A stretch of DNA of 64,000 bases from Nitrospirota bacterium. GTDB lineage: Bacteria; Nitrospirota; Nitrospiria; 2-01-FULL-66-17. Position numbers and translations under genes: made by a program. Positions within the stretch are counted from its first letter, which is position 1. Each line of letters begins with the position of its first letter. The notes under the pieces were generated by a model, which was not told the origin of the DNA, did not search any database, and worked only from the letters and a program-made list of their open reading frames with translations. The stretch lies in the NCBI GenBank assembly GCA_016201825.1, contig JACQCD010000121.1, positions 1,753 to 65,752 of the forward strand. Direction: 5' to 3'. Below, piece after piece: positions 6,340 to 64,000 of this stretch.

Positions 6340-6341
6340 TC

Positions 6342-14359: not shown

Positions 14360-14440
14360 TCGTTGGCCCTCCGCCAGACCGCCTGATCCCGGCGCAGTCG
14401 ATCCCGCCGGCTCGTTCTCCATAAAGTAGGTGTATGCGGT

Positions 14441-15463: not shown

Positions 15464-15485
15464 GGACTTCCTGGAGGGTTGTTGC

Positions 15486-15626: not shown

Positions 15627-15660
15627 CGGCTTAAGTCCATATCGAAAGGGCCTCTCGATT

Positions 15661-15780: not shown

Positions 15781-15924
15781 CGACGTCGTTTGCTCCTGCC
15801 TAATCCCTGGGGCGGTGCGACGTTCTTGCTCAGGGGGTGTGTCCCACGGGGTGAGCTATTTCCTGATCGTTTCAGTTCGGCGGGGCGAGGGATCCTGCCC
15901 GGTCGGCTAAAAGAGGAGAAAGCC

Positions 15925-17856: not shown

Positions 17857-17924
17857 GGCGGTTCGTTTAGCGGTCAGCCCCTTCCCACTCGGGGCCGACT
17901 CTCTCAGGGATTAGGAGAACAACG

Positions 17925-19175: not shown

Positions 19176-19262
19176 CGCGTGGAGCTCATGGCGGGGGAAA
19201 GCCTCGGCGACCCCTCGCTACTGTAGCGGTCTTTTTTAACCTCTCTTCTGGAGGAGACTACG

Positions 19263-20195: not shown

Positions 20196-20234
20196 TCAAC
20201 GCGTGATCAGGTCTCTTTAAGGGGGAGCTCGACA

Positions 20235-49029: not shown

Positions 49030-49058
49030 TTGCCCTTGGAGGGCAAACCATATATGAT
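49030..49058 (+). promoter_or_regulatory. candidate promoter TTGCCC-N17-TATGAT for the seven-gene cytochrome operon
   Basis: TTGCCC at 49030-49035 and TATGAT at 49053-49058. The -35 overlaps a 6-bp hairpin (TTGCCC/GGGCAA), so this is ambiguous with a terminator for the esterase gene. Confidence 0.35.
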
Positions 49059-49190
49059 GGGCCGGTTTGACGGCTGGCCGATCGCGCCATGCTACCGCGA
49101 CGGGATATCAACGGGGCGCGCGAGCGCTCCCGGTGTGTCAGGTCGCGTGTCACCCCGCCGGTTCTCGGCGGGTTTCGCGACGGTGGAGGG

Positions 49191-51575
49191 ATGTCAATCA
49201 TGGCTCGCCATCGGTTGGACGTGGTCATCGCGGGGGCGGGCCCGGCCGGTTTGAGTGCGGCCGGCCACGCCCAGGCCAACGGCGTGTCTTACGTCCTGCT
49301 TGAGAAGACCGACCACCTCGCCGATACCGTCTTTAGCTACCAGAAACGCAAACACGTCATGTCCGAGCCGGGGCTCATCCCGCTTCGGGGGCCGCTGGCG
49401 TTTGAGGCGGGCACGCGTGAGTCCATCCTCGACGGGTGGAACCGGTTCGCGACGCAGGGCCGGTTGAACGTGTGTTACAGCCAACCCGTCACCGGGATCG
49501 TGTCACGCGACGGCGGATTCCTGGTCAACACCCCGACCGATGAGTACGAAGCGGGGAAGGTGATCCTGTCGATCGGCACGCAAGGCAACCCCCGCAAGCT
49601 CGGCGCGCCGGGCGAAGACCTCCCGCACATCACGAGCCGTCTCATCGACCCGGATGCGTTTGCCGATCAGGACATCGTGGTGGTCGGCGGCGGCGACGCG
49701 GCGATCGAGGTCGCCGTGGCGCTGTGCGAAAAGAATCGGGTCAGCATGGTGGTACGAACGCCCGAGTTCATCCGTGTGAAGGAGGCGCTCGAGCGCGAGG
49801 TGCTGGGCCGGGAGCGGGCCGGCCAGATGAAGATTTTTTACAACTCGGCGGTGAAGCGGGTCGAGCCCGGCTCGATCGAGCTCAAGACGCCGGACCGCGA
49901 CGTGGTCGTGCCGGCCGCCCACGTGATTCTCAAGATCGGCACGCAGCCGCCGCGGGCGTTCTTGGAAACCCTCGGGGTGCGGTTCCCCTCGGCGGATCGC
50001 GAAGCCCAGCCCGTCCTCAATCAGTATTACGAGTCGAGCGTGCCGGGGTTGTTCCTCATCGGCGCCGTCAGCGGGCGGCCGCTGATCAAGCTCGGCATCA
50101 ACCAGGGGTACGAGGTCATCGAGCACCTGTTGGGGCGGCCCGTCGAGCCGGCCGACGAGGACCTGCTCAAGGCCAAGCTGCCGTTCCTCCGCGGAACGGC
50201 GCGGGAGCGCATTCGCCGCGCGGCGAACGGGGTGCCGATCCTGGCCGCCGCGGACGACGAGTCGCTGCGCGAGGTGTTCCTCGCCGCCACCGTGCGGTCC
50301 TGCCGCCACGGCGAGGTGATTTTTCGGCAGAACGACTACACCGACAGCTTCCTCGCGATCCTCGACGGCCCGGTCGACATCTCCGTGGCCGCGGACGACG
50401 GCGCCGCGCGCCGGGTGGCCACGTTGTCGGCGGGGAGCTTCTTCGGCGAAATGAGCCTGATTTCCGGGCGCCGGCGGTCGGCCACGGCCACGTCGGTGGG
50501 CGAGACCCGGCTTCTCGAGATCCCGCGCAAGCCGATGCTCAAATTGGTCTACACCTCGCCCGCGGTGAGCGAGATTCTCAACCGCACGTACCTGATTCGC
50601 GCGTTTCAGAGCTATCTATTTCCTCAGGCGACCGACAACGAGTTGCGCGATCTGGCCATGACGGCGGTGGCACAGAAGCTCGAGAAGAACACGGCGGTGT
50701 TCCGCGAGGGGGAGCCGGGCGACGCGTTCTACCTGATTCGCAGCGGGATGGTGAAGATCGCCAAGGCGTCGGGCGTGAAGGAGCTGGTGTTGGCGTACCT
50801 TCCGGCGGGGCAGTACTTCGGTGAGATGGCGCTGCTCTCGGGCGAGCCGCGCAGCGCGACGGTCACGGCGATTTTCCCCACCGAGCTGATCCGCCTCGGC
50901 AAAGACGACTTCTTGCGGTTCTTGGAGGCCCGCCGCGAGTTGAAGGAGCGGATCGCGCGCGAGGCCGAGCGGCGCCGGTTGGCGACGCTCGAGGCCCAGG
51001 CGGGGACCGAGGGAGGCGGCGTGCTGGGCGAGTTGATCCGCGAGGAGGTCGTGATCGGGACCGACGTCCTTTTGATCGACGAGCATCGGTGTGTACGCTG
51101 CAACAATTGCGTCAAAGCCTGCGAGGGCGTCCACGAGGACGGTCAGGCGCGCCTCTCCCTGACCGGGACCACGTTCTACAACCTCCTGGTCCCGAACTCG
51201 TGCCGCCACTGCGAGAACCCGCTGTGCATGACCGACTGTCCCCCCGACGCGATCGCGCGCGACCCGCGCGGGGAGGTGTACATCAAGAACAACTGCATCG
51301 GGTGCGGCAACTGTGCGAAGAATTGTCCCTACGGCAACATCTTCATGGTCCATCCCAAGGCTCAGCACGGAATCCTGGGCTGGCTCAAGGCCCTCTGGCC
51401 GGGGGCCGGTGAAGAATCGGGACGATCGGTCGCCGTGAAGTGCGACCTGTGCCGGGACATCGCGGGCGGGCCGGCGTGTGTGCGGAGCTGCCCCACCGGC
51501 GCCGCGATCCGGCTCAAGCCCGAGGAATCCCGGCGGCAGATCGAGCGCCTTGTCGCGCGCGGGAGCGGCGCCTGA
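49191..51575 (+). CDS. fusion protein: TrxR-type FAD/NAD(P)H oxidoreductase (no CxxC) + two cyclic-nucleotide-binding domains + 4x[4Fe-4S] ferredoxin module
   Basis: RBS GGAGGG. VVIAGAGPAGLSAA and VVVGGGDAAIEVA. Two cNMP motifs FFGEMSLISGRRRSATA and YFGEMALLSGEPRSATV. Cys clusters CVRCNNCVKAC, CRHCENPLCMTDCP, CIGCGNCAKNCP, CDLCRD…CVRSCP. No signal peptide. Confidence 0.82.
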   Translation: MSIMARHRLDVVIAGAGPAGLSAAGHAQANGVSYVLLEKTDHLADTVFSYQKRKHVMSEPGLIPLRGPLAFEAGTRESILDGWNRFATQGRLNVCYSQPVTGIVSRDGGFLVNTPTDEYEAGKVILSIGTQGNPRKLGAPGEDLPHITSRLIDPDAFADQDIVVVGGGDAAIEVAVALCEKNRVSMVVRTPEFIRVKEALEREVLGRERAGQMKIFYNSAVKRVEPGSIELKTPDRDVVVPAAHVILKIGTQPPRAFLETLGVRFPSADREAQPVLNQYYESSVPGLFLIGAVSGRPLIKLGINQGYEVIEHLLGRPVEPADEDLLKAKLPFLRGTARERIRRAANGVPILAAADDESLREVFLAATVRSCRHGEVIFRQNDYTDSFLAILDGPVDISVAADDGAARRVATLSAGSFFGEMSLISGRRRSATATSVGETRLLEIPRKPMLKLVYTSPAVSEILNRTYLIRAFQSYLFPQATDNELRDLAMTAVAQKLEKNTAVFREGEPGDAFYLIRSGMVKIAKASGVKELVLAYLPAGQYFGEMALLSGEPRSATVTAIFPTELIRLGKDDFLRFLEARRELKERIAREAERRRLATLEAQAGTEGGGVLGELIREEVVIGTDVLLIDEHRCVRCNNCVKACEGVHEDGQARLSLTGTTFYNLLVPNSCRHCENPLCMTDCPPDAIARDPRGEVYIKNNCIGCGNCAKNCPYGNIFMVHPKAQHGILGWLKALWPGAGEESGRSVAVKCDLCRDIAGGPACVRSCPTGAAIRLKPEESRRQIERLVARGSGA

Positions 51576-52408
51576 TGTTGTTGGCCACGCCCCTGAGCGC
51601 GCGGTGGCGCCGCATATCCTGGTGGCTGCTCGTCCTGCTGACGGCGGCGTATGTGTGGGCCGCCTATCCGGACGCCGCGCACGGAGGATCCCGAGTCGGC
51701 ATCGCGTACGGGATCATCGGCTCGGCGCTCATCCTGCTCCTCCTCGCGTTCGGGATTCGCAAGCGGCGGTATCGAAGCCGGCTCGGCCGCGTCGAATCGT
51801 GGCTGCAGTCCCACGTCTACCTCGGCCTCCTCGTGGTGGTCGTCATTCTGCTGCACTCCGGCTTTCGCTTCCACGACCTGATCGCCGTGACGGCGTTCGC
51901 GCTTCTGGGCGTGGTCGTGGCGAGCGGCGTGGTCGGCGCCGTCGCGTACACGCTCGTGCCGGCGTGGCTGACCGAGGCCGAGAGCAACCTCACGCCGCAG
52001 CAGATCTCCGACCGGCTCAACCAGCTCGCCCAGTCGATGGGACGTCTGGCGTCGGGGAAGTCCGCCCCGTTCCGCGCGACCTGCACGCGCCTGCTCCGCG
52101 CGGAGCGGCCGGGCTGGTTTGCGGGGTGGCGCGTCGTCTGGTCCCGCGGCGCCGGTTCGCCGACGGGCGAGCTGGGCGGCGCGTGGCAGGCGCTTCGCGA
52201 CCAGGTCGGGCTCGAGGAGCGGGGAGATTTTGACGCGCTGCTCGTGCTGTCGCGCCAGCGACAGGACCTGCACCGGCGGTTGATCGCCCGGCAGCGGTAC
52301 AAGAACCTGATCGAGGCGTGGTTATACCTCCACGTCCCGCTGTCCGTTGCGATGCTCGTGGCCATTGCGGCGCACGTCACGGCGTTCTTCTACTACGTGG
52401 CGCCGTAG
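51575..52408 (+). CDS. 5-TM membrane protein with two H-x13-H pairs (candidate di-heme b transmembrane electron carrier)
   Basis: The ATG overlaps the previous stop (TGATG). H80/H94 in TM3 (SHVYLGLLVVVVILLHS, nt 51812 and 51854). H253/H267 in TM5 (LHVPLSVAMLVAIAAHV, nt 52331 and 52373). The Arg-rich loops fit positive-inside topology. Confidence 0.7.
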   Translation: MLLATPLSARWRRISWWLLVLLTAAYVWAAYPDAAHGGSRVGIAYGIIGSALILLLLAFGIRKRRYRSRLGRVESWLQSHVYLGLLVVVVILLHSGFRFHDLIAVTAFALLGVVVASGVVGAVAYTLVPAWLTEAESNLTPQQISDRLNQLAQSMGRLASGKSAPFRATCTRLLRAERPGWFAGWRVVWSRGAGSPTGELGGAWQALRDQVGLEERGDFDALLVLSRQRQDLHRRLIARQRYKNLIEAWLYLHVPLSVAMLVAIAAHVTAFFYYVAP

Positions 52409-52416
52409 GGTCCGAC

Positions 52417-54084
52417 GTGGCCTATCGCCTCATCAGACACGCCGACGGCCGGATCGAAACCACCGAGGTGGCGGGACCGGCGCTACGGATCGGCCGAGGC
52501 ACCAATGCCGACCTGCGGTTCGACGACACGGCGGTGGCGCTCGAACACGCCCGCATCGAACAGACCGACGGCGGGTTCCTGCTGACCGATCTGGGCGGCG
52601 TCACGGGCTGCTACGTCAACGGATCACGGGTCACGTCGACGCGCTTGGCCGGAGGGGACCGAATCGAGATCGGTCCGTTTCTGATCGACGTCACGCTGCC
52701 CCGAGGACCGGGCGAGTCGGTGGCGCTCGATGTCCGGCCGGTGGCCGGGGCGAGGGCGGCGCGCGGGGCGATCGATGCCAAGCCGATCGATTATGCCAAG
52801 GCCTACGCGCTCAACCGATGGTTTGCGAACAAGCCCCTCTTGACGCTGGTCGCGACGGCGGGGCTCGGCGCGTTGTTGAGCGGGATTCTGTGGGCGGGGA
52901 AGACCGAACTGTTCCGACCGGGCTCGGTCACGGTCGCCCATGCGCTTTTCACCAATCAGTGCGAGCGCTGCCACACGGCGTGGACCGGCGTCTCCGAGAA
53001 GGCGTGCCGGGGCTGCCACGTCCCGGCGGTCCACCACGACGACCAGGCCGATGCCCCGTCGTGTCTGGCCTGCCACGCCGAGCATCGCGGCCAAGCGGCG
53101 CTGGCCGGCGTGGCGACGCGAGACTGCGTCGCCTGCCACCGCCAGCTCCAGACCAAGGATCATTCGCCGCTTTCGTTCGCGGATCGGACCACCGACTTCG
53201 CGACCGATCATCCCGAGTTCGCGATCACCCGGGTCGTCAATGGGAAGAAGGAGCGCGTGCGATTGGACGTGCCCGGCGCGCGTCGCGCCGACGCCGCTTC
53301 GATCAAGCTCAATCACAAGGTCCATCTCAAGCCGGCTCTCAAAGGGCCCAAGGGCCCCGTCCAACTCGCGTGCCGCGACTGCCATCTTCCGGCCGAGGAC
53401 GGCGCGCGCATGGCGCCGGTGACGTACCAGGAGCGGTGCAAGGGATGCCATGAGCTGGGGTTCGACCCCCGCTTTCCAGACCGCGTCGTCCCGCACGTGC
53501 CCCCGGCCGACGTGCGCGCGTACCTCGTGGCGGAGTATACCGAGAACGCGGGCGCTTTAGTGTCGAAAGGCGGGGGGGCGGATCGGCTCGCGGGGCCGCG
53601 GTTTCCGGGGCCCGCGCGCTCGCCGTCGCTGGAGTGGGTGATGGAGCAGGTCGCCGTCGACGAGCGCCACCTGTACACCTCCGCGTGCCCCGAGTGCCAT
53701 GCGGTGCGCGCGGACGCGCGGCCGGTTCCCGAGATTGAGCCGACGCGGGTCCCCTCGTCGTGGCTGTCGCACGCGCGGTTCGCGCACCGCTCGCACGCCC
53801 AGTTGGAGTGCGGCGCCTGCCACGAAAACGTGGAGAAGAGCGCCGACACGAGCGACGTCCTGCTCCCGGGGATCGAGATCTGCCGCCGGTGCCACCGCGC
53901 GGCCGATCCGACGCCGAGGCTGCAGGCAGATCGGGCGAGCATCGACTGCGTCGCGTGTCATCGCTACCACGACGGGCCGGCCAAACCGGGGCCTGAGGGC
54001 TCGTTCACCATCCGGCGTTTGCTGGACGGAGTGGACCCCGGACGACGGGAACCGCGTCCCATGTCCGAAGGGCCTCAGACATGA
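52417..54084 (+). CDS. FHA domain - TM helix - decaheme c-type cytochrome
   Basis: GTG at 52417. FHA-like LRIGRGTNADLRFDD…HARIE…FLLTDLGG…YVNGSRV…GDRIEIG. TM LLTLVATAGLGALLSGILWAG. Ten CXXCH motifs (CERCH, CRGCH, CLACH, CVACH, CRDCH, CKGCH, CPECH, CGACH, CRRCH, CVACH). Confidence 0.82.
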   Translation: MAYRLIRHADGRIETTEVAGPALRIGRGTNADLRFDDTAVALEHARIEQTDGGFLLTDLGGVTGCYVNGSRVTSTRLAGGDRIEIGPFLIDVTLPRGPGESVALDVRPVAGARAARGAIDAKPIDYAKAYALNRWFANKPLLTLVATAGLGALLSGILWAGKTELFRPGSVTVAHALFTNQCERCHTAWTGVSEKACRGCHVPAVHHDDQADAPSCLACHAEHRGQAALAGVATRDCVACHRQLQTKDHSPLSFADRTTDFATDHPEFAITRVVNGKKERVRLDVPGARRADAASIKLNHKVHLKPALKGPKGPVQLACRDCHLPAEDGARMAPVTYQERCKGCHELGFDPRFPDRVVPHVPPADVRAYLVAEYTENAGALVSKGGGADRLAGPRFPGPARSPSLEWVMEQVAVDERHLYTSACPECHAVRADARPVPEIEPTRVPSSWLSHARFAHRSHAQLECGACHENVEKSADTSDVLLPGIEICRRCHRAADPTPRLQADRASIDCVACHRYHDGPAKPGPEGSFTIRRLLDGVDPGRREPRPMSEGPQT

Positions 54085-55619
54085 AACACTCGCCGCGAAC
54101 GTCAACCGGGAACGTGTCCGCTCTCGCGCGGATGGGGTTGCTTGCGGCGCTGGCGTTCGTCGCCGGCTGCGGCGGCGGGACGAGTGTTGATCAGAGCCTG
54201 ATCTGCGACGGGTCCGGCGCGCCGCTGTCGGCCGCCGAGGTCTCGGGCATCGTGACAAACGCCGCCTCGGCAATCGACGCGCCCGCCATGACGGTCGCCG
54301 TCGTGGACCGGAACGGGAACGTCCTCGCCGTGTATCGGCAGCCGGGCGCTTCGGCCGCGAACGACGACCTGGCCGTGTCGCTCGCGCGCACCGCCGCGTT
54401 CTTCAGCAACAACCAGGCGCCGCTCTCCTCCCGCACCGTGCGATTCATCAGCGGGATCCACTTCCCGCCGGGGATCAGCTTCACCCCTCCCGCCGCGCTG
54501 TACGGGATCGAGAATACCAATCGCGGCTGCGAACTGAACGTCACGTTCAACCCCGGCAAGGCGGTGCCGCCGGCCAAGTCGGTGGCCGGCGGGTCCTGCA
54601 ACAGCACCGACCGCAGCGGGTGCGGACGGGGGATCACGACGGGCAAGGCCGATCTCGCCGACAGCGACCCCGCGGCGGTGAACCCCGGCGGCGTGCCGCT
54701 GTTCCGCGGGTGCACGGTGGTGGGCGGCGTCGGCGTGGCCGGCGCGCCCGGCGCCCACGCCGAGTTCGCCGCGCTCGCGGGGGCCTCGGCGTTCCCGCCG
54801 AGTATCGCGCCACCCGGCATCGTGGTGATCGACGGCGTGCGCCTGCCGTTTGTCGAGCAGACCACCCAGCCGTCGGGCACGACCGCCGGGAGCGCGGCGG
54901 GCGCGTTCGTCGTCGGGCCGGTGGCCGGCGCCGGCGTCCCGGAGGGGTATCTGGCGGGGCCCGTCGCGGGGTCGCGGTTGTCGGCGGCCGAGGTGGATCG
55001 GATCGTCCAACAATCGGTCCAGACCGCCGACCGCACGCGGGCTGCAATCCGCCTCCCGATCGGCCTGCGCACGCGGATGGCGATCGCCGTCGGCGACGTG
55101 GACGGAACGATCCTCGCGCTGTACCGGATGCCAGACAGCACGGTGTTTTCCATCGATGTGGCCGTGGCCAAGGCGCGTAACGTCGTCTACTTCAGCGGGC
55201 CCGATCCCAATGCGGCGGCCGACCTCCCGGGCGTGCCCGCGGGCACGGCCGTCACCAACCGGACGATCAGCTTTGGCAGCCAACCCTTGTTCCCTCCGGG
55301 TATCGACGGCGGCAGCGGTGTCGGCCCGTTCTTCAGTCTGTTTCAGAACGATACGGCTGCGGCGTGCTCGCAGGGGAGCCAGGCGGTGAACGCCAACCAG
55401 AGCGGGATCGTCTTCTTCCCCGGGAGCCTGCCGCTGTACGCGAACGGCATCCTCGCCGGCGGCTTGGGGATCAGCGGCGACGGCGTGGAGCAGGACGACT
55501 ACGTGTCCGCGGGGGGCGCGACGGGCTTCGAATCCCCGGAAGGCATTCGAGCCGACGGCGTCTCGATCCGGGGCGTGCGCCTGCCGTTTCTGAAGTTCCC
55601 TCGGAACCCGGAGGGGTGA
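54081..55619 (+). CDS. lipoprotein with two GlcG/HbpS-like (DUF336, heme-binding/'heme-degrading') domains
   Basis: Lipobox LAFVAGC. Both halves show LSAAEV…(I/A)VAVVD/AIAVGDVDG…LAVYR/LALYRM…A(R/K)(T/A)…FFS/YFS and GG(V/L)PL(F/Y)…GG(V/L)G(V/I)(A/S)G. The ATG overlaps the previous stop. Confidence 0.7.
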   Translation: MKHSPRTSTGNVSALARMGLLAALAFVAGCGGGTSVDQSLICDGSGAPLSAAEVSGIVTNAASAIDAPAMTVAVVDRNGNVLAVYRQPGASAANDDLAVSLARTAAFFSNNQAPLSSRTVRFISGIHFPPGISFTPPAALYGIENTNRGCELNVTFNPGKAVPPAKSVAGGSCNSTDRSGCGRGITTGKADLADSDPAAVNPGGVPLFRGCTVVGGVGVAGAPGAHAEFAALAGASAFPPSIAPPGIVVIDGVRLPFVEQTTQPSGTTAGSAAGAFVVGPVAGAGVPEGYLAGPVAGSRLSAAEVDRIVQQSVQTADRTRAAIRLPIGLRTRMAIAVGDVDGTILALYRMPDSTVFSIDVAVAKARNVVYFSGPDPNAAADLPGVPAGTAVTNRTISFGSQPLFPPGIDGGSGVGPFFSLFQNDTAAACSQGSQAVNANQSGIVFFPGSLPLYANGILAGGLGISGDGVEQDDYVSAGGATGFESPEGIRADGVSIRGVRLPFLKFPRNPEG

Positions 55620-57367
55620 TGCGCGCGACGCGTCGGTGGTCCGGGGTCTTGATGGTTGGCGCATTCGTGGGACTCCTCGGCCTCGTCCCGGGGCCCGACT
55701 CAGCGGGGGCCGCCGAGGGCGACGAGGGAGAAGAGCGGCTGCCGCGACGGCCGCTCGCGCCCGTCACCGAGCCGCGCGAGCCCCTGCTCCCGCAAGAGAT
55801 GCCGGACGGCCGAGGCTTCGTGCCGCTTCCCGACCGGTGGACGATCGCGCCGCCGCCGTACGAGCTGAACGTGAAGGGGCATTGGTGGGATCCGTACAAC
55901 CAGAACCTTCTCAAGGGCGATCGGCCGATGTGGGGTCAGGACACGTTCCTCAACCTGACGCTGGCGTCGGAGACCCTCGCGGAGTACCGCGCCGTGCCGA
56001 CGCCCGGCGGCGTGAGCGCCGAGCGCGCGGGGAGCGCGGCGTTGTTTGGCGCGCGCGAGCAGGGGGCGTTCAGTCAGAACCTGATCGTGTCGGCCGACCT
56101 GTTCAAGGGCGACACGGCGTTTCGGCCGTTCGACTGGCGGGTCAAGGGCACCGTGATCGCCAACCTGAATTTCTTCGACGTCCGGGAACGGGGGATCGTC
56201 AACGTCGACGTGCGCGAGGGCGTGAACCGCCGGGATGGATTCTTTGCGCTGCAAGAGTTCTTTGTCGAGGCCAAGTACAAGGACCGCAGCCCCAACTACG
56301 ATTTCGTGTCGGTCCGGGCCGGCCTCCAGCCGTTTTCGAGCGACTTCCGGGGTTTCGTGTTCACGGACACGAACCTGGGCGTGCGCCTCTTCGGCAACGC
56401 CGAGTCCAACCGCGACCAGTATAACCTCGCGTTCTTCGACCAGCGAGAGAAAGAGACTAATAGCGGCTTGAACCGCTTCGAGCGTCGCGGCCAAGAGGTG
56501 TTCGTGGGCAACGTCTACCGCCAGGACTTCCTGGTGCCGGGCTATACCGCGCAGGTGAGCGCGCACTACCTGCTCGACGAGGAGAGCCTGCACTTCGACG
56601 AGAACGGCTTTCTGGCCCGGCCGGACGCCGTCGGTGTGTTCAAACCCCACGAGATCCGGGCCGCGTACTACGGGTGGGCGGGATCAGGGCACGCGGGGCG
56701 CGTCAACGTCGAGCACGCCGCGTACTACGTCGTGGGCGAGGACCGGCGCAACCCGATCGCCGGGCGCGAGGTCGATATCCGAGCCGGGATGGCGGCGCTG
56801 GAAGTGTCGTACGATCACGACTGGTTCCGGCCCAAGGTCTCATACTTCTACGCCTCCGGCGACGGCAACCCGACCGACGATACCGCTCGGGGGTTCGACG
56901 CGATCTTCGACAACCCGGCGTTCGCGGGCGGACCGTTCAGCTTTTGGAACCGACTTGGCCTCCGCCTGGCGGGCACCGGCGTGGCGCTGGTCAACCGCGG
57001 GAGCGTGCTGCCCGACCTTCGCAGCAGCAAGGAGGAAGGGCAGCCCAACTTCGTCAACCCCGGCATTCATCTCGTCAGCGCGGGTGTCGATGTGGATGTC
57101 ACGCCGAAACTCAAAGGCGTCCTCAACGCCAACTACCTGCGGTTCGACCAGACCGAGGCGCTCGAGTTCCTGCTCTTTCAGGCACCGATCCACAAGGACA
57201 TCGGGTGGGACCTCGGCGCCGGCTTGCGGTATCGGCCGTTGTTGAGCAATAACATCGTGATCCTCGCCGGCGTCGCGGCGTTCATTCCCGGCGAAGGATT
57301 CAAGGACATCTACGAATCGGGCCGCGTGTTGCAGATGGCGTTCACCACGGCGACGCTGGTGTTCTAG
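55619..57367 (+). CDS. outer-membrane beta-barrel (porin-like) protein
   Basis: Signal peptide GVLMVGAFVGLLGLVPGPDSAGA. Alternating beta-strand pattern with many aromatic girdle residues. The C-terminus …TTATLVF ends in Phe. The ATG overlaps the previous stop (TGATG). Confidence 0.72.
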   Translation: MRATRRWSGVLMVGAFVGLLGLVPGPDSAGAAEGDEGEERLPRRPLAPVTEPREPLLPQEMPDGRGFVPLPDRWTIAPPPYELNVKGHWWDPYNQNLLKGDRPMWGQDTFLNLTLASETLAEYRAVPTPGGVSAERAGSAALFGAREQGAFSQNLIVSADLFKGDTAFRPFDWRVKGTVIANLNFFDVRERGIVNVDVREGVNRRDGFFALQEFFVEAKYKDRSPNYDFVSVRAGLQPFSSDFRGFVFTDTNLGVRLFGNAESNRDQYNLAFFDQREKETNSGLNRFERRGQEVFVGNVYRQDFLVPGYTAQVSAHYLLDEESLHFDENGFLARPDAVGVFKPHEIRAAYYGWAGSGHAGRVNVEHAAYYVVGEDRRNPIAGREVDIRAGMAALEVSYDHDWFRPKVSYFYASGDGNPTDDTARGFDAIFDNPAFAGGPFSFWNRLGLRLAGTGVALVNRGSVLPDLRSSKEEGQPNFVNPGIHLVSAGVDVDVTPKLKGVLNANYLRFDQTEALEFLLFQAPIHKDIGWDLGAGLRYRPLLSNNIVILAGVAAFIPGEGFKDIYESGRVLQMAFTTATLVF

Positions 57368-57388
57368 CGCGCAGCCTCGGAGGATCGG

Positions 57389-60300
57389 ATGCGTGACGGT
57401 GACATGAAGACGCGATCGTGGCGGCCGACCTTGACGATCGTCCTGGTCCTCGCCCTGACCGCGGTGGGAGCGTCCCGTTTGTTCTCCGGGGAGCCCTCGA
57501 AAGACCTTCCCGACCTTCACCGGCAACCGGAGACGCTGGCCGACGAGAAGAGCGAGGGGTGTCGGGGATGCCACGAGGGGATCGAGCCGATGCACGCGTC
57601 CCCCGCCGTGAAGCTCGCCTGCGTCGACTGCCACGGCGGAAACGGCGACGCCAAGATCGCGACCGGCGTGGAGCGCGGCTCCGACGAGTACGAGGGCGTC
57701 AAGCGGCAGGCGCACGTTGCGCCCCGGTTCCCCGCGCGGTGGGCGGGGCCTGACGGGCGCTACCGCGCGGCCAACCCCGAGGGCAGCTACACGCTGCTGT
57801 TGGACGAGTCGCCCGAATTCGTGCGCTTCGTCAACCCGGGGGATCTTCGTGTGGCCGTGGAGACGTGTGGGCGCTGTCACGACGACGAGGTCGCGGCCGT
57901 CCGGCGGAGCACGATGACGACGTCGGCGATCTTCTGGGGCGCCGCGGGATACGCGAACGGGATCGTGTCGCCCAAGCGCTCGATCTTCGGCGAGGGCTAC
58001 GGTCGCGACGGCACGCCGCAACTGATCCGTCCCGCCGCGCCGCCCACCGCGGAGGAGAAGCGCAAGGGCGCGTTGCCGTTCCTGGTGCCGCTGCCTCGCT
58101 GGGAGATCATCCAGCCCGGCGATAACTTCCGGGCCTTCGAGGACGGCGGTCTGCTGCAACCGTCGGCCTTCCCCGAGATCGGCAATCCCAACCCACTCGA
58201 CGAACCCGGCAAGCCCGACATCCGCTTGAGCAGTCGCGGCCTCGGCACAGGCCTGCGGGTGAGCATCCCGGTCCTCAACATCCACAAGACGCGGCTGAAC
58301 GACCCGCACCTCTCGTTCCTCGGGACCAACGACCACCCGGGGGACTACCGCTCCAGCGGCTGTACCGCGTGCCACGTCGTCTACGCCAACGACCGCGACC
58401 CTGCGCACTCGGGGCCCTATGCCGAGTTCGGCCACCTGGGCCGCAGCGCGACCGACGACCCCACGATCTCCAAGAACGAATCGGGCCACCCCATCCGCCA
58501 CCGACTCACCCGCGCCGTGCCGTCCAGCCAGTGCATGACCTGCCACATGCACCAGCCGAACTCGTTTATCAATACGTATTACGGGTATAACCTGTGGGAC
58601 TACGAGACCGACGGCGGGTTCCTGTGGCCCGCGAAGCAGCAGTACCCCACCGAAGCCGATCGGCGCCTGATCCTCGACTCCAACCCCGACGGCGCGTCGG
58701 TGCGCGGGCTCTGGTCGGACCCCGCCTTCCTCGCGCGGGTGAGCGAGCTCAATCCCAAGCTGCAGCAGACCCAGTTCGCGGACTACCACGGACACGGCTG
58801 GATCTTCCGCGCCGTGTACAAGCGAGACCGCAAGGGCAATTTGTTGGACGCGGAGGACAAGCCGGTCGCGTTCGAGGACCCCAAGCGCTTCGAGAAGGCG
58901 GTTCACCTCGCGGACATTCATATGGAGAAGGGCATGCACTGCGTGGACTGCCACTTCACGGTGGACAGCCACGGCAACGGTACGCTCTACGGCGAGTACG
59001 GTCACGCCATCGAGATCGCCTGTGAGGATTGTCATGGCACGACCAGGGTGCGGGCCACGCTCCGGACGTCGGGCCCAGCGTCGCCCGCGGGCGGCACCGA
59101 TCTGCTCATCAAGACCACGCCGTTCGGCCGCCCGCAGTTCGCGTGGCGCGAGGGCAAGCTGTTCCAGCGCTCGATGCTGAAGCGGGATCTGGAGTGGGAG
59201 GTTGTCCAGGTGCTCGACTCGATCACGCCGGGCAACGCCCACTACAGCGAGAAGTCCCGCCTGGCGAAGACGATCCAGCGGGACGGAAAAACGTGGGGCC
59301 GCGGCGACGTCGACGACGCGTCGCTCGCCCACTCCAACCAGAAGATGACGTGCTACGCGTGTCATTCGTCGTGGATGACGTCATGTTTTGGCTGCCACCT
59401 GCCGCAGCAGGCGAACCAAAAATCCGACAAGCACCACTTCGAGAGCGGCACGACCCGGCAGTACAGCTCGTACGACATGCAGGTGGTGCGGGACGACGTC
59501 TTCATGCTCGGGATCAACGGGACGGTGGAAGGGCACAAGGTCGCGCCCGTCCGGTCGTCCAGCGCCGTGATGCTCAGCTCGACCAACCTGAACCGGCAGC
59601 GGTTCTACATCCAGCAGCCCACGATCTCCGCTCCGGGATTCAACGGCCAGGCGTTCAACCCCCACGTGCCGCACACCGTGCGCGCGCGCGAAACCAAAGG
59701 GTGCGCCGACTGCCACGTCTCCGCGCAGAACGACAACAATGCGTGGATGGCGCAACTCCTCCTGCTGGGGACCAAGTTCGTCAACTTCATGGGCCGCTTC
59801 GCGTGGGTCGCGGAAGGGGAGGCGGGCCTCGAAGCCGTCGGGGTCACCGAGTGGGAGGAGCCGCAGGCCGTGCTCGGGAGTTTTCTGCACCGCCTGGCCT
59901 ACCCTGACGCGTGGGCCGACCACCAAAAGCGCCGCCTCGAATTATCCGAAGCCCACCACCACGAGGGGGGCGGGGAGGCTCGGAGCCTGGTCAAGCGCGG
60001 GGAGTACCTCTATGCTGCGCTCGGACCCAAGGGCTTCGAGGTCTTCGACGTCGCGAACGTGGACAACAAGGACGCCTCCGAACGGATCGTGACGGCTCCG
60101 GTGTCGCCGCTCGGCCAGCGCACGTACGTCCGCACCTCGTATGCGACGGCCGTGGCGCTGCCGACGAACATGCCGATCGCGCCCTACCGAAAAGGGCTCC
60201 CGGAGAACGAGGAACAGGCGTGGCACCCGCTCTACCACTACGCCTACGTGACCGATCGCGACGAGGGGCTGATCGTCGTCAACGTGGACACGTTGGCCGA

Positions 60301-61156
60301 CCGGGACCCCACGAACAACTTCCTCGAGCGCGCCGCCACGTTCAACCCCGACGGTGAACTGAACGGCGCCCGCAACCTGGCGATCGCGGGGCGGTACGTG
60401 TACGTGGCCTGCGAGCGGGGCTTGGCCGTGGTGGACATCGATGATCCGCTGCACCCGCGCATCGCCGCGCGGCTGCACGACGTCGCTCGGCCCACGTCGG
60501 TGGCGATCCAGTTCCGGTACGCGTTCATGACCGACGCCGAGGGACTCACGGTGGCGGACGTCACCGACCCCCGCGCGCCGCGGGTGGTCGCGCGCCTGCC
60601 GATCGCCGAGGCCAAGAGCGTCTACGTGTCGCGCACCTACGCCTACGTGGCGGCCGGCCGGACGGGCCTGGTGATCGTCGACGTCGAGCGGCCCGATCGG
60701 CCGCGGATCGACCAGGTCTACACGGCCGACGGGCGGATCGCCGACGCGCGCGACGTGAAGGTCGCCTCGACGAACGCGAGCCTGTTCGCGTACGTCGCCG
60801 ACGGTGCGGGTGGACTCAAGGTCATCCAGCTCACGTCGCCCGAGACCATGCCGGGGTATCTCGGGTTCAGCCCGCGGCCGGAGCCGCGGTTGATCGCCAC
60901 GCGCCGCACGCACGGCCCGGCGCTCGCCGTGGCCGAAGGGCTGGACCGCGACCGCGCCGTGGACGAGAGCGGCCATCAAATCGCCGTGTTCAACCGGATC
61001 GGGGCGCGGCCGTTCCGGTCGGACGAGATGCAGCGCTTGTATCTGAAGGATGGCCGTCTGTACCAGGTCGAGAATACGCCGCCCGCGGCGCCCCAGGAAC
61101 CGCCGAAGGCGGACCGCAAGGGGCGGGCGGGATTGCCAACAAGGGGCGAACGATGA
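57389..61156 (+). CDS. 1255-aa secreted decaheme c-type cytochrome fused to a C-terminal LVIVD-repeat beta-propeller
   Basis: RBS GGAGGA. Signal TLTIVLVLALTAVGA. Ten CXXCH motifs between nt ~57560 and ~59716. Six LVIVD-like repeats at nt ~60000-60845 (GFEVFDVA, GLIVVNVD, GLAVVDID, GLTVADVT, GLVIVDVE, GLKVIQLT). Confidence 0.82.
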   Translation: MRDGDMKTRSWRPTLTIVLVLALTAVGASRLFSGEPSKDLPDLHRQPETLADEKSEGCRGCHEGIEPMHASPAVKLACVDCHGGNGDAKIATGVERGSDEYEGVKRQAHVAPRFPARWAGPDGRYRAANPEGSYTLLLDESPEFVRFVNPGDLRVAVETCGRCHDDEVAAVRRSTMTTSAIFWGAAGYANGIVSPKRSIFGEGYGRDGTPQLIRPAAPPTAEEKRKGALPFLVPLPRWEIIQPGDNFRAFEDGGLLQPSAFPEIGNPNPLDEPGKPDIRLSSRGLGTGLRVSIPVLNIHKTRLNDPHLSFLGTNDHPGDYRSSGCTACHVVYANDRDPAHSGPYAEFGHLGRSATDDPTISKNESGHPIRHRLTRAVPSSQCMTCHMHQPNSFINTYYGYNLWDYETDGGFLWPAKQQYPTEADRRLILDSNPDGASVRGLWSDPAFLARVSELNPKLQQTQFADYHGHGWIFRAVYKRDRKGNLLDAEDKPVAFEDPKRFEKAVHLADIHMEKGMHCVDCHFTVDSHGNGTLYGEYGHAIEIACEDCHGTTRVRATLRTSGPASPAGGTDLLIKTTPFGRPQFAWREGKLFQRSMLKRDLEWEVVQVLDSITPGNAHYSEKSRLAKTIQRDGKTWGRGDVDDASLAHSNQKMTCYACHSSWMTSCFGCHLPQQANQKSDKHHFESGTTRQYSSYDMQVVRDDVFMLGINGTVEGHKVAPVRSSSAVMLSSTNLNRQRFYIQQPTISAPGFNGQAFNPHVPHTVRARETKGCADCHVSAQNDNNAWMAQLLLLGTKFVNFMGRFAWVAEGEAGLEAVGVTEWEEPQAVLGSFLHRLAYPDAWADHQKRRLELSEAHHHEGGGEARSLVKRGEYLYAALGPKGFEVFDVANVDNKDASERIVTAPVSPLGQRTYVRTSYATAVALPTNMPIAPYRKGLPENEEQAWHPLYHYAYVTDRDEGLIVVNVDTLADRDPTNNFLERAATFNPDGELNGARNLAIAGRYVYVACERGLAVVDIDDPLHPRIAARLHDVARPTSVAIQFRYAFMTDAEGLTVADVTDPRAPRVVARLPIAEAKSVYVSRTYAYVAAGRTGLVIVDVERPDRPRIDQVYTADGRIADARDVKVASTNASLFAYVADGAGGLKVIQLTSPETMPGYLGFSPRPEPRLIATRRTHGPALAVAEGLDRDRAVDESGHQIAVFNRIGARPFRSDEMQRLYLKDGRLYQVENTPPAAPQEPPKADRKGRAGLPTRGER

Positions 61157-62523
61157 TGCACAACAGACGAGTCAGGTGGGGGGTGGCGGCGATGGTCGCA
61201 TGCGCGGCGGCGCTGGCGTCTATGGGTCTCGGTCCCGCTCGGGCCGCGGACAATCCGGCGCCGAGCGCCAACGAGAAGCCGCGCCCCGGCCAATACCTGG
61301 GCGCGCCCTCGTGCGCGTCCAGCCACTGCCACGGAAGCGCGCAGCCGCGAACGGCGTACGACGTGCGGCAGAACGAGTACCTCATCTGGCTCAAGCAGGA
61401 CAAGCACACCAAGACCTACAGCGTCCTCTCGAACGCCCTTTCGAAGCGCATCGCCAAGAACATGAAATTGAAGCGGCCGCCGCAAGAGGAGGCGCGGTGC
61501 CTGGACTGTCACGGCCTTGCCGTGGCCGAGGAGCTTCAGGCTCGCCCCGTGGACCTCGCCGACGGGATCTCGTGCGAGGGCTGCCACGGACCGGCCGGAG
61601 GATGGCTGGCGGGGCACACCGAGGAGGGATGGACGCACCAGCGCTCGGTCGAGGCCGGCATGACCGATTTGCGCGATCTCGTGACGCGGACGGAGGTGTG
61701 CTTGGGGTGTCACCTCGGCAAGACCGGCACCGGGGTGGACCACGAGCTGCTCGCGGCCGGCCATCCTGATCTCGTATTCGAGTTGGTCAACTTCAGCGCA
61801 GCGATGCCGGCGCACTGGACGCCGGTGTCCCGGAAGAAAGCCCGCGCGGACCGCCCCGATCGCAACACCGCGCGCGCATGGGCGGTGGGGCAGGTGGTGC
61901 AGTTCCGCGAATCGATGCACCTGACCGCGCGCCGCGCCCAGTCGGGCCGGTGGCCGGACTTCGCCGAGATGGAGTGCACCTCCTGCCACCACGCGCTCAA
62001 CGGCGGCAAGGAGCGGCAGCTCCGGGGGTATTCGCTGGCGGCCGGGCTTCCGGGTACCAGCCCCGCGCGCGTCGCCGTCTTCCGCCACGTGCTCGACACG
62101 TTCTCGCCGGACGACCGCGGTCCGCTGCTCGTGAGCGTGGACCGACTTGCGGCCTCGATCTCGCGCCTGTTTACGCCGCACGAGACGGTGGCGGTCCAGG
62201 CGAACGTGCTCGGGGACGAGACGCGCGGGGTGTTGGACCGGGTCGGGTCCACGGAGATCGACGACGCCTTGACCCGCGTGATGCTGCTGCGGGTGGCCGG
62301 CGACGGAGTCTTTTTGAACAGAGCCGACTTGAGGTCGGCGAAGCAGGTGGCGCTGGCGATCAACGCGCTGGCCGGCGCGCTGGCCGAACACGATCCCAAG
62401 TGGGCCCGCCCGGAGGTCGCGAAGACGATCGACGCGCTGTACGACGACGTCTCCGGCAAAGGTGACTATGACCCACAACGGTTCGTCAAGCACCTCGCGG
62501 CGTTTCGGCGATCGGTGAAGTGA
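61153..62523 (+). CDS. secreted multiheme cytochrome (c554-like N-terminal half, helical C-terminal half)
   Basis: Signal AAMVACAAALASMGLGPARA. CLDCH, CEGCH, CLGCH, CTSCH plus an atypical SCASSHCH (CX4CH) where family members normally carry the first CXXCH. The ATG overlaps the previous stop. Confidence 0.75.
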   Translation: MMHNRRVRWGVAAMVACAAALASMGLGPARAADNPAPSANEKPRPGQYLGAPSCASSHCHGSAQPRTAYDVRQNEYLIWLKQDKHTKTYSVLSNALSKRIAKNMKLKRPPQEEARCLDCHGLAVAEELQARPVDLADGISCEGCHGPAGGWLAGHTEEGWTHQRSVEAGMTDLRDLVTRTEVCLGCHLGKTGTGVDHELLAAGHPDLVFELVNFSAAMPAHWTPVSRKKARADRPDRNTARAWAVGQVVQFRESMHLTARRAQSGRWPDFAEMECTSCHHALNGGKERQLRGYSLAAGLPGTSPARVAVFRHVLDTFSPDDRGPLLVSVDRLAASISRLFTPHETVAVQANVLGDETRGVLDRVGSTEIDDALTRVMLLRVAGDGVFLNRADLRSAKQVALAINALAGALAEHDPKWARPEVAKTIDALYDDVSGKGDYDPQRFVKHLAAFRRSVK

Positions 62524-62560: not shown

Positions 62561-63328
62561 CTACACCTGAAACGTCGCCCCGTCTTCTAAGATGGTCAGG
62601 TTCGTGACCGGAAGTTTCCCCAACTCCCGCCGGATTGCCGCGCGGTACCGCGGCTTCACGTGGTAGACGTAGACGGGGAGGTTCGGCCGTCCCAGCTTGG
62701 CGAACTCGTCGGCTAGCAGCGCAGGCGTGAGGTGTTTGGTCTGTGCGGCGAGACCTTTCAGCGCGTTGGGGAACGAGGTCTCGATCATGGCGGCCTTCAG
62801 GTCGGGTGTGGCGGCCGCCGCCTTCCAGAGGTGATCCGTCCGGTACGTATCCCCGCTGTAGAGGAGCGAGCCTCGCCGATCACGGATCAAGAAACCCGCG
62901 CACGGGACGGTGTGGTTGACGGCGAACGCGCGGACCCGGAGGTCGTCGAGTTGAATCGCCGTGCCTTCGTCGATCGCCTCGAGCCGAAAGAGCGGATGGG
63001 TCGGCGTGGGGATCTTGGTGAAGTCGGGCCAGAGGCGGTCGTTGAAGACGTGGCGTTTCAGTTCGTCGATCACCTTCTTCAGGCTGACGATCACGATCGA
63101 CTGTGGCACGCCGTTCTCGATCAGATTCTCGGACAGGAGGGGGAGGCTCTTGATGTGATCCATGTGGATGTGCGACACGAGGACGTAGCGGATCTTCCGC
63201 TGCTCCGCGATCGTCAGCGCCGAGCAGACCGTGCCCGCGTCCACGAGGACCGATCGGTTGATCAGAAAGCCGGAGGTGCCGCACTCGCCCAGCTCCGCGC
63301 CGTGGCACCCCAAGACCCTCACCCTCAT
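62561..63328 (-). CDS. class-II 3',5'-cyclic-nucleotide phosphodiesterase (MBL fold, CpdP-like)
   Basis: MRVRVLGCHG…YVLVSHIHMDHIKSLPLLSE (HxHxDH signature region). Start at the ATG at 63328. The upstream part of ORF 62561..63730 is a shadow frame. Confidence 0.75.
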   Translation of the reverse strand: MRVRVLGCHGAELGECGTSGFLINRSVLVDAGTVCSALTIAEQRKIRYVLVSHIHMDHIKSLPLLSENLIENGVPQSIVIVSLKKVIDELKRHVFNDRLWPDFTKIPTPTHPLFRLEAIDEGTAIQLDDLRVRAFAVNHTVPCAGFLIRDRRGSLLYSGDTYRTDHLWKAAAATPDLKAAMIETSFPNALKGLAAQTKHLTPALLADEFAKLGRPNLPVYVYHVKPRYRAAIRRELGKLPVTNLTILEDGATFQV

Positions 63329-64000
63329 GCGCGCTCCTTTTTGAGTCCCGTGACCTCGTAGACCCGCACGGTCTTGGCCCGTCCCTTGACCGCCAGCTCG
63401 CCCAGATCTTTGAACGCCGCGCGGCCGATCTTCTTGGGCGCTTTGCGGCGATCCGGGTGCCGGATCAGCGCGGTCCGGGCGCGGCGTTCGTCGACCGGCA
63501 CTTCGCGGGCCTCGACCAAGTGCTCGATCGCCCGGTACGTGGAGTCGGTGATGAGGATGCCCGCGTTGTGTTGTCTGGTCAGCGACTCCACGCGCGCGCC
63601 GAGATTGACGTTGTCGCCGATCAGCGTGTAGTCCATCTTCTTGCCCTCGGCGCCCATGTTGCCCACGACCATCTCGCCGGTGTTGATCCCGATCCCCGCA
63701 TCCAGCGGCTCGCGCCCCTCGGCGCGCCACTTCGCCTGCAGCTCGGCGAGCCGGTGTCGCATGTGCAACGCGCAGCGGACAGCCAGCTCGGCGTGGTTGG
63801 GTTGGTCGATGGGCGCGCCCCAGAATACCATGATCGCGTCGCCCACGAACTTGTCCAGGGTCCCGTTCCAGTGGAAGATCACATCGGTCATCGCCTGGAG
63901 ATATTCGTTGAGGGCGGCGACGACCTCCTCCGGCTGGTGGGCCTCGGAGAACGCCGTGAAGCCGCGCACGTCGGAGAAGAGCACCGTCAGCTCCTTACGC
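63325..64000 (-). CDS. class III adenylate/guanylate cyclase catalytic domain (5' end beyond the right edge of the window)
   Basis: …TVLFSDVRGFTAFSE…LDKFVGDAIMVFWGAP…GINTGEMVVGNMG…DYTLIGDNVNLGARVES. The stop overlaps the phosphodiesterase start (ATGA). Confidence 0.85.
   Translation of the reverse strand, partial: RKELTVLFSDVRGFTAFSEAHQPEEVVAALNEYLQAMTDVIFHWNGTLDKFVGDAIMVFWGAPIDQPNHAELAVRCALHMRHRLAELQAKWRAEGREPLDAGIGINTGEMVVGNMGAEGKKMDYTLIGDNVNLGARVESLTRQHNAGILITDSTYRAIEHLVEAREVPVDERRARTALIRHPDRRKAPKKIGRAAFKDLGELAVKGRAKTVRVYEVTGLKKERA

Follow-up and report, generated by a model that had tools for sequence, protein, structure and literature searches.

A seven-gene operon in a Nitrospirota contig, predicted to link cytoplasmic NAD(P)H to periplasmic multihaem cytochromes through a putative dihaem b membrane protein

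The DNA analyzed here (the window: 64,000 bp of contig JACQCD010000121.1, Nitrospirota assembly GCA_016201825.1) contains an operon of seven genes, g1 to g7, in which a flavo-iron-sulfur protein with cyclic nucleotide monophosphate (cNMP) binding domains and a putative dihaem b protein of the inner membrane precede a set of proteins dominated by multihaem cytochromes c. We read it, with modest confidence based on sequence comparison and predicted structures, as a cytoplasm-fed electron-export system regulated by a second messenger. The logic proposed for the inner membrane, from NAD(P)H to FAD, iron-sulfur (Fe-S) clusters, two haems b and finally haems c, is well supported by the comparison of related loci, while the outer half is compatible both with an unusual conduit across the outer membrane and with a multihaem enzyme of the periplasm that has a dedicated porin.

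In the proposed mechanism, as suggested by the domains found, g1 would oxidise NAD(P)H at a TrxR-like FAD domain and feed its own chain of four [4Fe-4S] clusters. The Fe-S domain would dock on a cytoplasmic helical insert of g2, whose two bis-His haems b, bN and bP, held between the transmembrane (TM) helices TM3 (H80/H94) and TM5 (H253/H267), would carry the electrons across the inner membrane. The periplasmic haem, bP, would reduce the membrane-anchored decahaem g3, from which electrons would pass to the soluble, c554-like g7, to the outer module g4/g5/g6 and to a terminal oxidant. As acceptor we favor Fe/Mn oxides, or another oxidant of the periplasm or the cell exterior, situated at the outer membrane or beyond it, which would be reached via g4-g5-g6. 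The coordinates of all features are given in Table 1.

Table 1. Genes of the operon and other annotated features, with their position in the window and the basis of each assignment.
Feature	Coordinates	Strand	Basis
Promoter-like element TTGCCC-17-TATGAT	49030..49058	+	consensus match, in the 205-bp gap 5' of g1
g1: flavo-Fe-S protein, cNMP-binding	49200..51575	+	Pfam, NCBIfam, sequence reading
g2: 277 aa, inner-membrane protein with 5 TM helices, putative dihaem b cytochrome	51575..52408	+	invariant His, topology
g3: cytoplasmic FHA domain, one TM helix, periplasmic decahaem cytochrome c	52417..54084	+	FHA 1.3e-14, 10 CxxCH
g4: lipoprotein, two GlcG/HbpS-like (DUF336) domains	54081..55619	+	lipobox FVAGC; PF03928 in 2 stretches, 4.4e-26
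g5: outer-membrane beta-barrel, 18 strands	55619..57367	+	signal peptide, C-terminal Phe, AlphaFold2 model
g6: secreted, 1255 aa, decahaem and LVIVD beta-propeller	57389..61156	+	signal peptide, 10 CxxCH, LVIVD 2e-24
g7: periplasmic c554-like cytochrome, 4 CxxCH and 1 CX4CH	61153..62523	+	Cytochrome_C554 PF13435, 3.6e-9
Class-II cAMP-phosphodiesterase-like/MBL-fold gene	62561..63328	-	PF02112 7.7e-16; start MRVRVLGCHG behind AAGGAG
Adenylate/guanylate cyclase catalytic domain; gene exits the window end	63325..63984	-	PF00211 6.2e-23

The seven open reading frames (ORFs) share one strand and are packed, from 49200 to 62523, by overlaps of 1-4 nt or by gaps of 8 and 21 nt. At the g1/g2 junction, a TGATG, the TGA (51573-51575) and the ATG (51575-51577) overlap by 1 nt at 51575; TGATG is found again between g4 and g5, at 55619, while ATGA joins g3 to g4 (at 54081) and g6 to g7 (at 61153). 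The 8-nt gap (52409-52416) separates g2 from the GTG start of g3 at 52417, and the 21-nt gap (57368-57388) lies between g5 and g6. The operon is bordered by a 205-bp gap behind an alpha/beta-hydrolase gene on the 5' side and by a convergent gene 37 bp beyond g7 on the other. Terminator-like sites are not enriched within the operon (10 seen, 7.9 +/- 2.6 expected from shuffled sequence). A preliminary description of this DNA had proposed seven coupled genes with these junctions, and all ORFs and junctions were verified; profile hidden Markov model (HMM) scans with Pfam and NCBIfam upheld every domain call made there, as well as the statement that the operon holds no NapC/CymA, ImcH or CbcL-type gene. 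The start of g1, which had been placed at 49030 or 49089, was revised. The longest g1 ORF does begin at 49089, but ATG 49200 is the likelier start, because it is preceded by a GGAGG (49185-49189) and g1 orthologues are 789-792 aa long; position 49030 belongs to a promoter-like hexamer pair. A perfect palindrome, TTGCCC-N5-GGGCAA (49030-49046), overlaps the -35-like hexamer 5' of g1 and could be a candidate operator.

Conservation of the gene order was evaluated in two clades. The clade 1 sample is made up of 74 species-representative loci, mostly from Thermoanaerobaculia and other Acidobacteriota, whose g2 is about 50% identical to the one described here. Clade 2, the largest g2 subgroup, is defined by the motif W[LV]SAH[VI]YLG, is about 30% identical to g2 and has at least 600 metagenome matches; 80 of these loci (GC 0.38-0.72) were used for synteny, and all clade 2 counts refer to them. 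Immediately upstream of g2, a g1 orthologue is present in 68/68 informative clade 1 loci and in 43/47 of clade 2, and a g3-like decahaem gene directly downstream in 62/62 and 49/49, respectively. The pair g4 and g5 is in place in 44 of 47 and 29 of 32 loci, and g6 in 44 of 46 and 28 of 30. Overall the gene order recurs in several phyla and in far more than 100 independent loci, among which a Nitrospirota metagenome-assembled genome (MAG) from Hainich groundwater (locus L082) has the same seven genes; the carriers number in the hundreds and are uncultured bacteria of soil, sediment and groundwater. The counts rule out a chance adjacency of the seven genes in both clades and bear out the expectation that their orthologues co-localise in other genomes. 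At one locus, L144, ccmF and ccmB stand directly upstream of g2, where g1 would be.

The flavin domain of g1 matches Pyr_redox_3 (2.4e-37) and is of the TrxR/YpdA-like FAD/NAD(P)H type, without the CxxC disulfide. Two cNMP_binding domains (1.9e-43; PF00027, 146.7 bits across two stretches) sit between the flavin domain and the Fe-S domain, and both keep an intact FGE...RSAT cassette, FGEMSLISGRRRSAT and FGEMALLSGEPRSAT. The C-terminal Fe-S domain contains four Cys motifs and matches the four-cluster ferredoxin models HydN, AegA, NrfC and DsrO, with scores far under their equivalog cut-offs. The protein is taken to be cytoplasmic since it is devoid of a signal peptide. The location of the cNMP domains, between flavin and Fe-S chain, suggests a ligand-gated electron transfer, and cAMP or cGMP, bound to the two domains, probably gates the activity.

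The predicted topology of g2 consists of five TM helices, with the N-terminus in and the C-terminus out, and of a cytoplasmic helical insert of about 100 aa. Two His pairs, H80-x13-H94 and H253-x13-H267, are located on TM3 and on TM5, the last helix, and therefore match the pattern of NOX and ferric reductases, in which His pairs spaced 12-13 residues apart lie on two parallel TM helices. A strongly basic loop, RKRRYRSRLGR, precedes TM3, and, by the positive-inside rule, H80 and H253 lie towards the cytoplasm, their partners H94 and H267 towards the periplasm. As expected from the preliminary description, the His pairs are conserved: all four residues are invariant in 24 close homologues, a set of 138 diverse representatives keeps them in 132-138 cases, and, when 56 sequences with 22-38% identity to g2 are aligned, the four His make up the seven invariant columns together with G46, G118 and G121, located on helices neighboring those of the His. 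In the AlphaFold2 model (predicted local distance difference test, pLDDT, 82) the last TM helix prolongs a long cytoplasmic helix. A g2-like domain is fused C-terminally to a pentahaem c domain in two proteins, one from the Anaerolineales locus L077 (856 aa) and P0470 (758 aa). As the pentahaem domains must be periplasmic, these fusions place the C-terminus of g2 in the periplasm, and their occurrence ties its function to haems c. The invariant residues, the topology and the fusions together argue for an electron crossing by haems b, as in NOX/ferric reductases and MsrQ. A profile search of 1.84 billion representative proteins (E <= 1e-3, clusters at 50% identity) revealed that the family includes 4479 representative clusters; some of its members are named 'hemolysin III family' or 'PreT' in JGI records, which look like mis-annotations.

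Loci containing only parts of the operon are informative about the source of electrons. A Verrucomicrobiae locus (L083) contains the inner module alone: its flavoprotein is of the FNR type (NAD_binding_1+Fer2), a cNMP/4Fe-4S protein and a homologue of g2 come with it, as does a multihaem cytochrome, and a c554-like gene lies beside them in divergent orientation; profile comparison by hhalign relates g2 to the L083 family (99.4% probability, E 1.8e-21, four His aligned), and g3 is homologous to the multihaem cytochrome (4e-29). The Anaerolineales locus L077 is also limited to the inner module, composed of a Pyr_redox_2/Rubredoxin_C flavoprotein carrying three FHA domains, a protein with two cNMP domains flanked by Fe-S domains (FeS-2xcNMP-FeS) and the g2::pentahaem fusion. 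Conversely, a locus from a Deltaproteobacteria MAG (L081) contains the outer module g3'-g4-g5-g6-g7 without g1 and g2. The system is therefore modular. The two functions of g1 are split into separate proteins in L077, L083 and L080, a Methylomirabilota MAG. In total, three types of NAD(P)H flavoprotein domains (Pyr_redox_3, NAD_binding_1+Fer2 and Pyr_redox_2+Rubredoxin_C) are combined with one core of cNMP-FeS protein, g2 and multihaem cytochrome, and no other comparative argument speaks as strongly for a module that joins periplasmic haems c to the NAD(P)(H) pool. These types and the g2-like::cytochrome c fusions lend support to the reading of the preliminary description, in which the system is fed by NAD(P)H. 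Of the quinone-independent NAD(P)(H) wire proposed there, the inner-membrane logic is supported, while the independence from quinones is an inference.

Two of these loci show further peculiarities. In L077, five paralogous Ser/Thr-kinase-like ORFs (N-termini read by eye) flank the module at 1370-3667 and 12482-20738, which suggests that it may be under kinase control in its lineage. In L080, a 1351-aa protein called at 2623-6678 combines three FHA domains, multihaem c, Fer4 and Pyr_redox; it would have to cross the membrane twice, or else the call may have merged separate genes. It is preceded by a separate cNMP/Fer4 protein and by one of 356 aa without Pfam match.

Ten CxxCH motifs are present in 53 g3 orthologues and nine in 14. 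The c554 assignment of g7 is matched by PDB entry 1bvb, cytochrome c554 (7e-4), and its CX4CH is also present in a distant homologue; TIGR03508, the model of MtrA/DmsE-family decahaems, matches g7 alone in the operon, with 23 bits where the cut-off is 192. In L083, the c554-like gene next to the inner module is 39% identical to g7 (7e-45). In the Thermoanaerobaculia-type clade the g7 gene follows g6; in the W[LV]SAH clade it is often located upstream and may be on either strand; homologues upstream of g1, in either orientation, were seen in L084, L086, L090, L091, L093, L101, L109, L160 and L161. Because of this upstream position, and of its presence with the inner module alone in L083, g7 seems to be part of the inner rather than of the outer module.

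The outer module starts with g4, whose relatives in the PDB are EfgA (6e-12), the C-terminal domain of PduO and HbpS. No Pfam match and no haem motif were found in g5. Its AlphaFold2 model, built on a 30-sequence alignment, is an 18-strand barrel of mean pLDDT 63, with values of 70-90 in the strands; in Foldseek searches the best match is AlgE (E 5.8e-17, target TM-score about 0.64, 13% identity), followed by the OprD/Occ family and MOMP, and a few g5 homologues match PF13372 (Alginate_exp). A role in polysaccharide export is not implied, as neither alginate nor other polysaccharide genes occur in the operon. The outer-membrane barrel of the preliminary description is thus retained as a predicted barrel, of AlgE/OprD-like rather than MtrB type: an MtrB-like cytochrome sheath was ruled out by the 18 strands, by the AlgE/OprD/MOMP best matches and by the absence of any MtrB match. 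A conserved, disordered N-terminal extension of about 80 aa (residues ~30-105, window 55619-55900), which could be a plug or a docking site, precedes the barrel; its conserved residues are R73, W74, E82, D91-P92-Y93, K99-G100-D101 and P103. In many g5 homologues an Ig-like Big_13 domain is found at the N-terminus.

An N-terminal decahaem domain of about 800 aa and a C-terminal LVIVD propeller make up g6. All ten CxxCH motifs are present in 40/40 complete orthologues, and the protein is the best conserved of the seven, with 45-74% identity in a 15-sequence alignment (most orthologues 61-74%), while g2 is at about 50% and g3 at 32-42%. The sole family-level likeness is to ExtM, a weak one (86 bits, cut-off 800), belonging to an operon termed 'selenite/tellurite reduction' by NCBIfam. 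Searches of PDB sequences, with g6 alone or with a 15-sequence profile, found no relative. The signal peptide is without lipobox, and no other sign of surface exposure was seen in g6. The complete conduit to the cell surface that had initially been described could not be maintained, given an AlgE-like barrel of 18 strands and an outer cytochrome without lipobox which could be an enzyme.

A number of observations weigh against the electron-export reading. Concerning the membrane step, g2 stays under the gathering score of every family in Pfam, and neither Pfam nor NCBIfam has a model of the g2 family; Foldseek searches of its model against the PDB returned long-helix look-alikes only (F-BAR domains and ABC exporters, E > 0.3), and the family profile HMM, run against PDB sequences, coiled-coil noise only. 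With sub-threshold Pfam scores and no structural match in the PDB, haem b binding by g2 is an inference, and a quinone site may be present within the protein. As a porin of the AlgE/OprD type devoid of haem motifs, g5 offers electrons no evident path across the outer membrane, and g6, haem-sparse and unusually conserved, could be either a wire or a catalyst. Regarding control, the FHA domain of g3 keeps G26, R27 and H44 and has Ala41 and Thr63 in place of the canonical Ser and Asn, which makes phosphothreonine binding uncertain, while many of 164 FHA segments from related loci retain Ser or Asn at these positions. The phosphodiesterase-like neighbor of the operon is ruled out as a conserved part of the system, since tblastn found no homologue of it in the other loci. 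Finally, 4/47 clade 2 loci are without g1 upstream of g2, and all carriers found are MAGs or metagenome contigs.

The weak similarities of g2 bear on two different readings of the inner membrane step. Its score against Ferric_reduct (PF01794) is 14.3 bits, with a cut-off of 28, and the best family member reaches E 8e-6; among 24 members, sub-threshold matches were obtained with Ni_hydr_CYTB (21/24), Ferric_reduct (19/24) and DUF4405 (10/24), all dihaem cytochrome b families. The preliminary proposal of a NOX/ferric-reductase-like step is thus sustained by the invariant His pairs and the weak Ferric_reduct match, and weakened by the lack of matches above threshold and at the level of structure. 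The same scores allow g2 and g3 to be viewed as a quinol:cytochrome c oxidoreductase of the CbcL/CbcBA/ImcH type, on a quinone-linked branch in which g1 would either sense the redox state or cNMP as a regulatory subunit or serve as an alternative NAD(P)H:quinone entry. Quinone-reactive dihaem cytochromes b occur in the families that g2 resembles, with Ni_hydr_CYTB matches in 21/24 members; CbcL combines a dihaem b domain with a multihaem c domain, an outline shared by the g2-like::pentahaem fusions; and MsrQ was unexpectedly found to bind ubiquinone. Yet a quinol oxidase needs neither a cytoplasmic flavin nor a four-cluster Fe-S wire, whereas g2 is almost always accompanied by a cNMP-FeS protein and by an NAD(P)H flavoprotein, the latter swapped at least twice; moreover, the insert that g2 conserves on the cytoplasmic side would suit docking. 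We consider this quinol-linked arrangement improbable.

The properties of g5 and g6 can be accommodated differently, by keeping the inner module as proposed and turning the outer one into a periplasmic reductase: a soluble oxidant, such as an oxyanion, a nitrogen oxide or a peroxide, would enter via g5 and be reduced by the enzyme g6, with g7 as shuttle, and the whole, powered by NAD(P)H, would serve detoxification or assimilation, like MsrPQ and other NAD(P)H-driven detoxifiers, rather than being a case of extracellular electron transfer. The barrel does match substrate porins and exporters (AlgE, OprD/Occ, OprB) and not a cytochrome sheath; only ten haems are distributed over about 800 aa of g6, the best conserved protein, which also contains long invariant motifs unrelated to haem; ExtM, its one relative at the family level, comes from the operon named after selenite and tellurite; and an energy-wasting use of NAD(P)H, gated post-translationally, would fit protection on demand, for which MsrPQ is a precedent. 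The sequence of g6 points the other way in having at least 11 invariant His outside the haem motifs, enough to make all ten haems bis-His and thus non-catalytic, and in showing no catalytic-haem signature such as CxxCK. Moreover, both the Pfam name and the 2004 paper defining the LVIVD repeats tie them to cell-surface proteins, and the operon is without a candidate substrate-specific gene. A periplasmic reductase is, on these grounds, a possible but rather unlikely explanation, and delivery to an oxidant at or beyond the outer membrane is preferred.

The direction of the flow had been left undefined. Outward transfer is thermodynamically favored, because NAD(P)H is at about -320 mV and the membrane potential favors the exit of electrons. 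The step should conserve no energy by itself, and the system therefore looks like a controllable redox valve, or a supply for a reductase, rather than a classical quinone-linked chain. An inward conduit, with extracellular Fe(II), Mn(II) or a cathode as donor and running through g6/g7/g3, g2 and g1 to NAD(P)+ in support of lithoautotrophy, is implausible and was rejected on thermodynamic grounds: it would be doubly uphill, from donors far above the -320 mV of NAD(P)+ and against the membrane potential, and no energy-coupling subunit is encoded in the operon. A protein record 100% identical to g5 is named Nitrospirae, a bd-like oxidase neighborhood lies in the window, and c554-type cytochromes are known from lithotroph electron chains, all of which would suit such a role; most carriers found, on the other hand, belong to the largely heterotrophic Acidobacteriota or to further lineages of soil or sediment. 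It would be surprising in the extreme if electrons entered by this route.

Searches of the accessible literature found no description of the seven-gene form. A related arrangement is the putative porin-cytochrome operon ptdABCDEFG, reported in a 2024 preprint as of 'completely unknown' function in marine Alphaproteobacteria UBA11136, Gammaproteobacteria, Nitrospirales, Planctomycetes and others (bioRxiv 10.1101/2023.11.21.568154). The question left in the preliminary description, of whether the architecture had been described, is thus answered for a relative and not for this form. Isolates named there as carriers of Ptd include Tistlia consotensis, Roseibium aggregatum and Sulfidibacter corallicola, and accessions such as MBT5131319 to MBT5131325 are listed for PtdA-G. 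The two operons were compared by the description of their parts. In the cytoplasm, the FAD/NAD(P) oxidoreductase PtdC and the cNMP-binding 4Fe-4S protein PtdE are both matched in g1; in the inner membrane, the ferric-reductase-like PtdF is followed by the decahaem PtdG, as g2 is by g3; the tetrahaem PtdD resembles the c554-like g7, the porin PtdB resembles g5, and PtdA, a multihaem protein with a beta-rich domain, g6. The layout of L083, with genes like ptdC, ptdE, ptdF and ptdG, is similar, and homology to its proteins was found for g2, g3 and g7. The differences are that the PtdC and PtdE functions are fused in g1, with a TrxR-like flavin domain in place of a flavohaemoprotein-like one; that the order of the genes is not the same; that a GlcG/HbpS-like lipoprotein, g4, is added and g3 carries an FHA domain; that g6 combines a decahaem with an LVIVD propeller, PtdA a pentahaem with a beta-sandwich; and that the carriers inhabit soil, groundwater and sediment, while Ptd habitats are saline. 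The operon is best regarded as a variant of a predicted, uncharacterised kind, in which delivery to the surface and quinone independence are proposals.

The transfer of electrons from cytoplasmic NAD(P)H across the inner membrane has two precedents, the relay from a cytosolic NADH oxidoreductase via the membrane haem protein MsrQ to the periplasmic MsrP (PMC12525009) and the bacterial NOX enzymes, such as SpNOX (PMC5676040, PMC11031084). A cytoplasmic NAD(P)H flavoprotein, haem b held by TM helices and a periplasmic redox partner are common to these systems and to the proposed g1-g2-g3 relay. With respect to MsrQ and NOX, g2 has five TM helices instead of six, a large cytoplasmic insert and a sub-threshold Pfam score; moreover, electrons would reach it through four [4Fe-4S] clusters rather than by direct flavin-haem contact and leave it for a chain of c-type haems, not for O2 or a molybdoenzyme, and cNMP and FHA domains are added.

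The operon shares with MtrCAB, PioAB/MtoAB and Geobacter Pcc/Ext the presence of genes for a periplasmic multihaem, a barrel, a lipoprotein and a large outer multihaem protein, and with Pcc/Ext the weak similarity of g6 to ExtM/ExtN. The MtrB sheath has 26 strands, unlike the AlgE-like g5 with 18; no MtrA/DmsE-family decahaem is encoded, the outer cytochrome g6 is not a lipoprotein, and a cytoplasmic NAD(P)H module takes the place of the quinol dehydrogenase. The four Cys motifs of g1 recall the CISM proteins (NarH-NarI, FdnH-FdnI, HydN, NrfC, DmsB) and the AegA/YgfT fusions. The docking proposed for g1 and g2 is that of NarH-NarI, where a four-cluster wire contacts a dihaem b protein from the cytoplasm. 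Differently from these systems, no catalytic subunit, molybdo- or other, is found here, the proposed flow is outward from NAD(P)H, and cNMP domains are inserted between the flavin and Fe-S parts of g1. The uet cluster of Tenderiales contains separate NHL and LVIVD proteins and is of an unrelated architecture.

The two genes of the opposite strand which follow the operon (Table 1) are also translationally coupled, the stop of the cyclase gene overlapping the start of the phosphodiesterase-like one by ATGA, and form a possible pair for synthesis and degradation of cyclic nucleotides beside the cNMP-binding g1 operon. Cyclase homologues are found near the operon in L006, L007, L011, L016, L036, L040, L068, L069, L082, L083, L102, L108, L146 and L158. 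In two unrelated loci, L146 (2430-8904) and L083 (8907-11910), a CHASE2-guanylate-cyclase gene and a FecR-domain gene adjoin each other beside the module; a Slam-like (SlipAM) barrel and ccmH are also present in L146. FHA-mediated protein contacts probably add a second layer of control in many relatives. In one Thermoanaerobaculia-type subgroup a PatA_N+FHA protein is encoded directly upstream of g1, and g3 has two FHA domains.

The remainder of the window is occupied by housekeeping genes, including rho, ruvB, rpsA and an aromatic amino-acid cluster. On the + strand, in the region 15790-21905, a 688-aa protein weakly matches cytochrome bd subunit I (2.6e-13), and a few genes beyond it, at 20235-21905 (+), a dihaem cytochrome c is fused to an EB_dh (ethylbenzene-dehydrogenase-like haem b) domain. 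These genes may represent a cluster for a 'bd-like oxidase', as reported in Nitrospira.

In its boldest form the electron-export reading would make the operon a widespread, quinone-independent and second-messenger-gated wire, reaching extracellular minerals by a crossing other than MtrCAB, for example a haem-binding GlcG-like lipoprotein lodged in the 18-strand barrel. The switch would be cAMP or cGMP, joined in many lineages by Ser/Thr phosphorylation sensed through FHA domains, and the dihaem b membrane proteins in the path would be a new family. This form is unlikely; if it were true, Acidobacteriota, Nitrospirota, Methylomirabilota and further bacteria of soil and sediment would possess extracellular electron transfer of a new class. 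The mechanism preferred here, if it holds, would mean that in many uncultured bacteria cytoplasmic reducing power reaches the periplasm or the cell surface without the quinone pool, under a cyclic-nucleotide switch. Genome-based inference of metal reduction and redox balancing would then change, because marker sets built on Mtr, Pcc, CymA, ImcH and CbcL would miss the system. It would also provide a function for a large membrane-protein family absent from Pfam, the one defined by g2, and a compact NAD(P)H-to-cytochrome module for bioelectrochemical engineering, and the post-translational gating of transmembrane electron transfer by cyclic nucleotides would be a new bacterial regulatory principle, comparable to the control of eukaryotic NOX.

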